This document shows, piece after piece, positions 24,299-26,665 of a DNA stretch of 64,000 nucleotides. The position numbers and the translations under genes are program-made. The first letter of the stretch is position 1. The number at the start of each line of letters is the position of its first letter. Origin of the DNA: a virus; the IMG/VR virus record IMGVR_UViG_3300032268_001483, positions 1 through 64,000 of that record. One strand, given 5' to 3'. Under the pieces are notes generated by a model. The model was not told where the DNA came from. It ran no database searches and worked only from the letters and a program-made list of their open reading frames with translations.

Positions 24299-24409
24299 TT
24301 AGACAAATGGAAGAATAATTAAACAAATTAAAATGATTAAAAGAGAGAATCCAATAATTCTCGCTGAATCAACATATTGTTTTTCTTCCCTACTCAATCT
24401 CTTTTTCAT
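24299..24409 (-). CDS. 36 aa single-pass membrane peptide (not in ORF track)
   Basis: Hand translation MKKRLSREEKQYVDSARIIGFSLLIILICLIILPFV*. Confidence 0.45.
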   Translation of the reverse strand: MKKRLSREEKQYVDSARIIGFSLLIILICLIILPFV

Positions 24410-24432
24410 TATTTTTTTGATTTGGTTAAAGT

Positions 24433-24715
24433 AAAAAAAACCTCACCTGAGATTCCGGTGAGTAGATTTTAGCTGGTTTGTTTGCTTTCAAAAAACCAAT
24501 TAGTGTCTTACCACATTTAAAACAGTCAAGCTACTGGGAGACTCTGCTACCTGCCTTATTTCCCAAGACCCCGTTTATAAGACCTGTTCGGGGTTCCAGC
24601 CACACCTTTTTTTAGTAACGGTGCCAAATCTTTAGGTATCTCTTACCTATCAAAAAAAGATTCACACCTATCCTTGCTTTATTTCTAACCTGGGGAGTTT
24701 CAGTGTGAATTCTAC
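24433..24715 (-). ncRNA. Candidate ~280 nt structured non-coding RNA with its own terminator (unassigned)
   Basis: No ORF of 60 aa or more; hand count 111/270 GC (41%); at least six stems and CUCACC/GGUGAG + U8 terminator. Confidence 0.6.
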
Positions 24716-24724
24716 AATTATATT

Positions 24725-24973
24725 TCAATCTAAAATTTTGTTTATTGAATTCTCTCTATTTTCTATGATTTGTTCCAATTCCCATTCTTCTTTATGAAAA
24801 ATCTTATTTGCTAAGTCGACAATACGCTCCAAAGCATCATCTGGGTGAATCATACCACCCCAATATTTATCAATATCATCTCTATCTATAGAAGTCAGAA
24901 TGCCGATAGCCGCGATTAATATTTTTCCTTCATCAGAATTATTAATATCACATATTTTTTTAAAATTAATCAT
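24725..24973 (-). CDS. Small protein with C-terminal tag variant
   Basis: Ends NRENSINKILD. Confidence 0.55.
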   Translation of the reverse strand: MINFKKICDINNSDEGKILIAAIGILTSIDRDDIDKYWGGMIHPDDALERIVDLANKIFHKEEWELEQIIENRENSINKILD

Positions 24974-25312: not shown

Positions 25313-26665
25313 TTATTTAAGTATGGTTATAATTTCTGTATACCATTCACAAACTTCTTCTATCTTTTCTGGATATCTAAATTGCGAAAGCACATATCTT
25401 ATCGCATTTAATCTACCAATCTTTTTATCATTCGAGTTAACAATTATCCAAGGAGCCTTCCTTGTCGATGTCTTATTAAACATTTGAATTTTATATTGAG
25501 TAATAAGGTCATATTTAGTAAGGACCTTAGCATCATTTGGCGAAAATTTCCAAAACTTAAGTGGACTAGTTTGTCTTAACTTAAATCTTTCTTTTTGCTT
25601 TTCTTCTGTTATAGAAAACCACAATTTTATCAAATGTATACCAGAATCAATTAAGGAAGCTTCCCAATCATTTACACCTTCCATAAAAGTCATATATTCT
25701 TCTTCAGTACAATAACCATTTACTGGCTCAACTACTGCTCTGTTGTACCAACTTCTATCAAAGAAAACAATTTCTCCTTCTTTTGGCATGTATTGTTCAT
25801 ATCTTCCGAACCAATTTGCTCTTTCTTCTGGTGTTGGAATCGGTAAACCAGCTACAATTCTCGATACTCCAGGTATCCCAAAAGTAGTAAATCTTTTAAT
25901 AGCTGAACCTTTACCGGCAGCATCTCTACCTTCGAAGACAATAGCTAATTTTTGTTTTTTAGCACCTGGAACAATTTCAAATTGATAGATTTGAGTAGTG
26001 TCTAAACCTTCAACTTCCTTTAAAAATCTACGACGAGTACCTTCACCTGGACTCGTATTTTTACCCAATGCTCTTTGTTCTTGTTGCCAATCCTTTATTT
26101 TTTGTCTATATGCCTCATTAGCTTGAGAAGTTTTAACCCTTCTCCCTCCCTTAACCCAACATTGTAGTTTGATTAGTTCATCTTGTAAGGCTTCTTCTTC
26201 AGGATTATAAACGGAAGCTTTTATTAGGGAAGCTTCTCCTTCTTCAATATCAAAGTGTTCCCATTCTTGTCCACGCACACCACCTTGACTAATTTTGTCT
26301 ACACGTTCATCTAAATTGTCTAAATAATCAGAAAACTCTCTCTTAATAAGTTTAGCTGTATCTTTTCTTTGAAAGTCCAAGATGTGACTAATCTTAACGA
26401 GGAAAGTTTTCAAATTTAAATCAATTACTACATCCCTACCGAATTCTGATTCTAATTCAGATAATACATCAATAAAAGTAAAAATTGATTCGTCTTTATA
26501 CTTGACACTATCTGATTTCTGTATAATGTTATCAAGAATTTGATTCTTGTAACTTAGAAATTTTGAGCGCAAATTGACTTTTAAGTCCTCTATGTTTTGA
26601 GGTTGCATTTCCTCAATTCTGAGCTCTTCGTTGATAAATCTGATATAATCTAATAATCTTTTCAT
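25313..26665 (-). CDS. ppk2: Polyphosphate kinase 2 with tagged N-terminal extension and internal insertion
   Basis: LQDELIKLQ, IVFEGRDAAGKGSAIKR, FDRSWYNRAVVEPV, KLWFSI, PLKFWKFSPND; N-terminus MKRLLDYIRFINE. Confidence 0.92.
   Translation of the reverse strand: MKRLLDYIRFINEELRIEEMQPQNIEDLKVNLRSKFLSYKNQILDNIIQKSDSVKYKDESIFTFIDVLSELESEFGRDVVIDLNLKTFLVKISHILDFQRKDTAKLIKREFSDYLDNLDERVDKISQGGVRGQEWEHFDIEEGEASLIKASVYNPEEEALQDELIKLQCWVKGGRRVKTSQANEAYRQKIKDWQQEQRALGKNTSPGEGTRRRFLKEVEGLDTTQIYQFEIVPGAKKQKLAIVFEGRDAAGKGSAIKRFTTFGIPGVSRIVAGLPIPTPEERANWFGRYEQYMPKEGEIVFFDRSWYNRAVVEPVNGYCTEEEYMTFMEGVNDWEASLIDSGIHLIKLWFSITEEKQKERFKLRQTSPLKFWKFSPNDAKVLTKYDLITQYKIQMFNKTSTRKAPWIIVNSNDKKIGRLNAIRYVLSQFRYPEKIEEVCEWYTEIITILK

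Follow-up and report, generated by a model that had tools for sequence, protein, structure and literature searches.

A minus-strand phage RNA gene combining an SRP-like hairpin with a pseudoknotted RNA module of tRNA arrays

The window analysed here, a stretch of 64,000 nucleotides, is the beginning of an IMG/VR virus record of 117 kb (IMGVR_UViG_3300032268_001483) that has a GC content of 30.5% and is estimated to be about half complete. Sequencing runs containing this stretch derive from freshwater and lake metagenomes. We investigated an island at 24716-24433, read on the minus strand, which is overlapped only by ORFs of 45 aa or less. The GC content reaches 0.38-0.415 at 24400-24699 against 0.21-0.30 in the flanks, which bears out the GC-richer, ORF-free island described in the first-pass annotation. 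The features of the locus are as follows:

24717-24744, minus strand: promoter-like site, in which a -35-like hexamer (24744-24739) is separated by 16 nt from a perfect TATAAT (24722-24717)
24652-24716, minus strand: module A, a hairpin resembling a cut-down domain IV of SRP (4.5S) RNA, matched by RF00169
24710-24703/24667-24660, minus strand: base stem of module A, 8 bp
24437-24652, minus strand: module B, about 210-215 nt, an RNA of an uncatalogued phage family, matched by model R1
24649-24644/24638-24633, minus strand: helix P1
24624-24620/24606-24602, minus strand: helix P2
24594-24589/24573-24568, minus strand: helix P3
24565-24561/24539-24535 and 24555-24553/24542-24540, minus strand: helix P4
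24514-24512/24505-24503, minus strand: helix P5
24498-24493/24479-24474, minus strand: helix P6
24462-24457/24447-24442, minus strand: helix P7
24642-24638 with 24453-24449, minus strand: end-loop pairing of 5 bp between the P1 and P7 loops, from RNAalifold and a compensatory change
24583-24577 with 24511-24505, minus strand: candidate contact of the P3 loop with the P5 loop and its closing base, from complementarity
24525-24557, minus strand: nearly invariant block of 33 nt, consisting of the P4 apex and the following joint, in alignments A3, A4 and A6
24433-24462, minus strand: terminator-like end, P7 followed by eight U, the U-run being present in the window and in the related contig L002
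24299-24409, minus strand: small neighbouring gene of 36 aa, whose product is polar and basic at the N-terminus and carries a hydrophobic helix at the C-terminus (tail-anchored type)

All seven stems proposed earlier, namely the base stem of module A, P1, P2, P3, the 24565-24561/24539-24535 part of P4, P6 and P7, were indeed present on the minus strand. The proposed terminator was likewise found, as the P7 hairpin followed by eight T at 24440-24433. The folding energy on this strand was no better than that of shuffled sequences (z -0.45), and the case for the stems thus rests on the comparison of homologues, in which compensatory changes preserve the pairing of six of the seven stems and of the terminator stem. 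The RNA was assigned to the minus strand since G-U pairs sit in the helices of this strand and the homologues are co-oriented with the tRNAs of their arrays. No open reading frame is kept across the module B homologues, in any member, and a protein-coding reading of module B was thus rejected. As judged from these sequence comparisons, the locus is a real structured non-coding RNA gene on the minus strand.

We then scanned metagenomes with an alignment of PPK2 relatives, which yielded the loci L002-L004, while the viral contigs gave no PPK2-based locus. L002, a metagenome contig of 32 kb, shares its gene order with the window from eight genes upstream of the RNA up to the RNA itself, contains a homologue of the full 280 nt, and loses synteny after the 36-aa gene. 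Between the window and L002, identity is 95% over the 3' half of module B, as compared with a nucleotide identity of 62-78% for the flanking genes; this sequence comparison showed the RNA to be more strongly conserved than its flanking genes. The more distant relative L004 has other ORFs at the position of the RNA. The PPK2 gene itself (25313-26665, minus strand) lies upstream of the RNA on the same strand and encodes an N-terminal extension of about 230 aa, which is conserved in relatives (17 proteins from several sources).

The search for known RNA families gave different results for the two parts of the gene. Rfam at gathering thresholds, together with ARAGORN, returned nothing over the whole window, and neither tRNA genes in the 117-kb record nor further Rfam matches in the rest of the genome were found. 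When 24300-24850 was scanned permissively with Rfam, the only significant hit was RF00169 (Bacteria_small_SRP), which matched 24716-24652 on the minus strand with 35.5 bits and an E-value of 6.8e-6, or 3.5e-7 against the whole 117-kb record. This score, like that of the L002 copy (28.5 bits), lies below the RF00169 gathering score of 40, so that module A is not a full SRP RNA. The first-pass annotation had seen no hallmarks of tRNA, tmRNA, RNase P, SRP or group I introns. This view stands for tmRNA, RNase P RNA and group I introns, and an Rfam comparison indeed gave nothing at 24437-24652, but it fails for SRP RNA, of which the first hairpin carries the signature, although below threshold. What had been taken for one novel RNA of about 280 nt thus resolves into two modules, a look-alike of SRP domain IV and a family RNA of about 215 nt.

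Module A resembles domain IV (helix 8) of the bacterial small SRP RNA (RF00169, 4.5S RNA, ffs) from the apex downwards. A GNRA tetraloop (GAAA, 24685-24682), aligned to the tetraloop of the RF00169 model, caps a 3-bp stem. Below it lie a symmetric loop, CAGG (24692-24689) opposite AGCA (24678-24675), which occupies invariant positions of the model and is unchanged in L002, and a short stem with a C.A beside the symmetric loop. There follows an asymmetric loop with an A-rich, longer 5' side (24702-24697), which comprises 6+3 nt in the window and 7+4 nt in L002. The asymmetric loop of E. coli SRP RNA is smaller, with 4 and 1 nt. At its foot, module A departs from the SRP RNA, since the 8-bp base stem replaces the long helix 5 and the distal site. 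About 33 helix 5 positions of RF00169 are deleted in the alignment, most of helix 5 is lacking, and the module measures about 60 nt as compared with about 100-115 nt for the SRP RNA. It differs further in being fused to an unrelated 215-nt RNA and in lying on a phage in which neither an Ffh M domain nor an SRP54/FtsY GTPase domain was found within 117 kb.

In the L002 copy, the apex is unchanged and both sides of the base stem have been exchanged. The identical stretch covers about 33 nt and includes every SRP-specific loop. Because two copies are known, in the window and in L002, the covariation of module A rests on this one sequence pair. A scan of viral contigs with an SRP-tip pattern revealed no further SRP stubs, but instead one full-length, GC-rich SRP RNA of the bacterial type (L037, 107-203, plus strand; 53 bits), which has the same C.A beside its symmetric loop as module A. 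The L037 contig of 4 kb is classed as viral and could be host DNA at a prophage end.

In 4.5S RNA, the tip (domain IV) is recognised by the M domain of Ffh, while the distal helix is needed for activation of the Ffh-FtsY GTPases. The selective conservation of the SRP-specific loops therefore argues for recognition of module A by Ffh, while the lack of the distal helix speaks for a decoy or tether rather than a functional SRP RNA. Module A thus probably binds the Ffh of the host, as its sequence suggests.

We next analysed module B, for which a covariance model, R1, was built from six members found in tRNA arrays, without the window sequence. R1 nevertheless matched the window over its full length (model positions 1-212) with 106.5 bits and an E-value of 3e-29, and it scored 100 bits in L002, 70 bits in L008 and 46.7 bits in a second copy on L007. 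The window has all of the helices P1-P7 and also the pairing of the first hairpin loop with the last. In the 11-row alignment A6, 93.6% of the cells pair and both sides change in 24 of the 45 pairs, counts that are inflated because this alignment was fitted to the model structure. The covariation score of A6 was 0.334, as compared with 0.083 or less when the partners were slid by 1-3 columns, and none of 500 shuffles attained the observed values. The homologues and covariation by which the first-pass annotation had proposed to judge the RNA were thus both found, the former in metagenome and IMG/VR contigs and the latter, strongly, in A6.

Individual helices behave in the same manner. P2 shows a change from C-G to A-U in L002, and natural variants at 24459 and 24622 in other lake runs keep their pairs as G-U. 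In the divergent L007 paralogue, P4, P5, P6 and the stems of a 5' pseudoknot differ on both strands yet remain complementary. This 5' element, the second of the module, reads as an H-type pseudoknot in the tRNA-array clade, where its stems change together at fixed positions, and a plain hairpin in the clade of the window. Since the shuffle test of its loop pairing was individually significant in two members only, the case for the H-type pseudoknot rests on these compensatory changes at fixed positions.

The pairing between the P1 and P7 loops was predicted unprompted by RNAalifold on a plain MAFFT alignment. It is 100% intact in nine sequences, and L008 changes both sides, from U-A to C-G; the end loops of the L007 paralogue are unlike those of the main family and are mutually complementary in part only. 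These comparisons support a module B of seven helices closed by the end-loop pairing. A second tertiary contact is probable between the P3 and P5 loops, which are complementary over 7 bp in the window, over 4-6 bp in both L002 and L008, and only weakly in the L007 paralogue, L013 and L030. Members of the tRNA-array clade have a different complementary pair of 4-5 bp in these two loops. A candidate helix of 3 bp, in which the joint after P4 would pair with the bases immediately preceding P7, showed no covariation and is mismatched in L002. The pseudoknot proposed in the first-pass annotation, which would pair the first loop with 24503-24496, was rejected. Its two arms do not vary between the window and L002. 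The 3' arm is also the same in L008, a contig without module A, and in L011, where the 5' end is cut, and the 5' arm is the SRP-type symmetric loop; the supported tertiary contacts lie elsewhere.

The 33-nt block at 24557-24525 is nearly invariant in the main members, with one differing base each in the window and in L030. The L007 paralogue departs widely, as both P4 stems are changed on both sides, and its loop is still purine-rich. The block is likely to be a functional site, as indicated by its conservation, and together with the closed fold, this near-invariant apex and joint suggests that module B may serve as a binding platform.

Homologues of module B were detected in about 11 other phage and metagenome contigs (L002, L005-L014 and L030). 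L005-L014 were found in IMG/VR by a pattern of the invariant core and L030 by a second pattern, and they match only 24652-24437. In the same searches, the bacterial genome contigs L016-L025, as well as L015 and L026, matched by chance in the motif itself only, and were discarded. Among GenBank phages, blastn gave no match to the window, L007 or L012 versions. The designation as a new class of phage structured RNA therefore holds in that 24437-24652 is structured, non-coding and without an Rfam family, but the RNA is not unique to this phage.

In nine of the contigs (L005, L006, L007, L009, L010, L012, L013, L014 and L030), module B lies flush between two tRNA genes, on the tRNA strand. The RNA of these members directly follows one tRNA and leaves a gap of 3-5 nt to the next one, and P7 has no U-run. 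L011, the nearest to the window over the 3' half, is cut at the 5' end, and its module B is followed by three tRNAs and a GOLLD RNA; L008 holds module B without module A and without tRNAs. The module B of the window is not placed between tRNAs, and the window and L002 have the promoter-like site and the terminator instead. No protein neighbour of module B is conserved across these contexts.

Besides tRNAs, the arrays that carry module B contain GOLLD RNA, freshwater-1 RNA and a group I intron. The GOLLD RNA of L011 (1446-1871, plus strand; RF02032, 266 bits) is complete and lies about 1.3 kb downstream of the module B copy, while L010 (2050-2111) and L012 (2112-2173) contain matches to freshwater-1 RNA (RF02979) of about 69 bits, for which the gathering score is 72. 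The second module B paralogue of L007 (2439-2642, plus strand), which is highly divergent, lies between tRNA-Glu and tRNA-Met of the same array. The arrays of L012 and L014 further include several unusually long tRNA-like genes of 85-94 nt (for example, L012 722-815, 1821-2006 and 4472-4562), one of which was given a four-base anticodon by ARAGORN.

We then considered how the two modules are transcribed. The promoter-like site, recognised solely by its consensus match (10 of 12 positions), has a -10 element that is partly conserved in L002, and transcription from it would be predicted to start near 24711-24709, at the foot of the first hairpin. At the other end, P7, a helix of the whole family, doubles as the terminator hairpin in the window. 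A 184-nt contig of a lake metatranscriptome, with one difference, spans 24511-24694 and thus the A/B junction and the tract of seven U (24658-24652) that trails module A. As a low-depth assembly with possible DNA carry-over, this contig hints at expression and at read-through beyond the U-tract; two more contigs of the same metatranscriptome fall in the PPK2 gene. What is particular to this locus is the fusion of modules A and B, outside any tRNA array. We favour, with a probability of roughly 0.6, a single minus-strand non-coding RNA gene of about 275-280 nt, extending from the promoter-like site to the terminator, in which an SRP-tip module, predicted to act as decoy or tether, would be joined to a pseudoknotted scaffold or decoy module.

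It is possible, if somewhat unlikely, that the locus instead encodes two independent RNAs, an SRP-tip RNA of about 60 nt ending at the seven U, and module B made by read-through and processing. In the window, the seven U directly after the base stem of module A could indeed end some transcripts. However, this U-run is missing in L002, no promoter-like site was found between the modules, and the RNA-library contig crosses the A/B junction with at least 42 nt on each side.

A second alternative, which we regard as unlikely, holds that only module B is functional, the SRP-like hairpin being a captured fragment of ffs or of a tRNA array that provides a stable 5' end or a partial terminator without any role for Ffh. 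It would agree with the finding that L008 and all tRNA-array members have module B but no module A, and with the below-threshold score and the two known copies of module A; where flanking tRNAs are lacking, a stable 5' hairpin would also be a plausible stand-in for the definition of the end. On the other hand, the apex of module A remained identical between the window and L002 while the base stem and the neighbouring genes (62-69% identity) diverged, which argues for selection on the loops and not merely on any hairpin.

The possibility that the RNA is a diverged member of a known family, such as tmRNA, RNase P RNA, 6S RNA, Y RNA, a group I intron, a GOLLD fragment or T4 rnaC/rnaD, appears very improbable. 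The tRNA-array context is indeed common to tmRNA, GOLLD and T4 rnaC/rnaD. However, no Rfam family was found at an E-value below 1 on module B, in either the window or the L007 member, even with lax filters, and ARAGORN detected no tmRNA. R1 reached at most 4.1 bits anywhere in the T4 tRNA region, so that homology to rnaC/rnaD was rejected, as was a Ro/Y RNA system, since neither a TROVE/Ro60 gene nor a YrlA match was found. Mimicry of, or antisense to, rRNA was also discarded, as no exact match to E. coli 16S, 23S or 5S rRNA exceeded 10 nt (P at least 0.13 against shuffles).

GOLLD, ROOL and freshwater-1 are structured phage non-coding RNAs of unknown function that lie beside or inside tRNA clusters (RF02032, RF02979; PMC5737381, PMC12286853). 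Module B shares its arrays with GOLLD and freshwater-1, but it has no sequence or profile similarity to these three RNAs and is far smaller than GOLLD and ROOL and larger than freshwater-1. It also resembles species 1 and 2 of T4 (rnaC and rnaD), stable RNAs whose function is unknown and whose genes are found at the end of a phage tRNA cluster, but differs from them in showing no homology by R1 and in its length, about 212 nt as compared with 139 and 119 nt. The T4 RNAs are released by tRNA processing.

The 36-aa gene follows the RNA terminator directly in both the window and L002 (5306-5416, plus strand). A role of the RNA as a cis-acting leader controlling this downstream membrane protein gene, as this position might suggest, is hardly credible, since the terminator closes module B ahead of the gene, a further promoter-like site lies between the terminator and the ORF, and nine other contigs have module B between tRNA genes with no downstream ORF. 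Small membrane proteins of the tail-anchored type are SRP clients in E. coli, and the presence of such a gene beside an SRP-like RNA may thus not be accidental.

Returning to the single chimeric RNA, we propose that two RNA cassettes of the kind found in the tRNA arrays of freshwater phages may have been freed from an array and given a promoter and a terminator. Elsewhere, module B would be excised by tRNA-processing enzymes, while here the promoter, the SRP-like hairpin and the U-tract would set its ends, and modules A and B would be transcribed as one molecule. Module A, a tip on a short stem, would bind host Ffh as a decoy or tether, without replacing the host RNA. Module B, with its compact fold closed by the end loops and braced by further loop contacts, may act as a scaffold or decoy, whose exposed 33-nt hairpin and joint is the predicted binding site for a host or phage factor. 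More speculatively, and in our view with a low probability, the product might be a chimeric particle, in which the SRP tip captures Ffh and the tethered module B engages a further component of the translation or targeting machinery, so as to redirect or block the targeting of membrane proteins and, perhaps, to favour the downstream tail-anchored protein.

If module A binds Ffh, the phage would use an RNA copied from the core of the universal protein-targeting particle to interfere with that particle, a type of host takeover for which we found no published report. Module B adds a compact, multiply pseudoknotted and strongly covarying member to the orphan phage RNAs that travel with tRNA genes, of a size that suits structure determination, and since it occurs both inside and outside tRNA arrays, the making of such RNAs can be compared in a natural experiment. 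That modules A and B are fused in one transcription unit suggests that the RNA modules of tRNA arrays can recombine.
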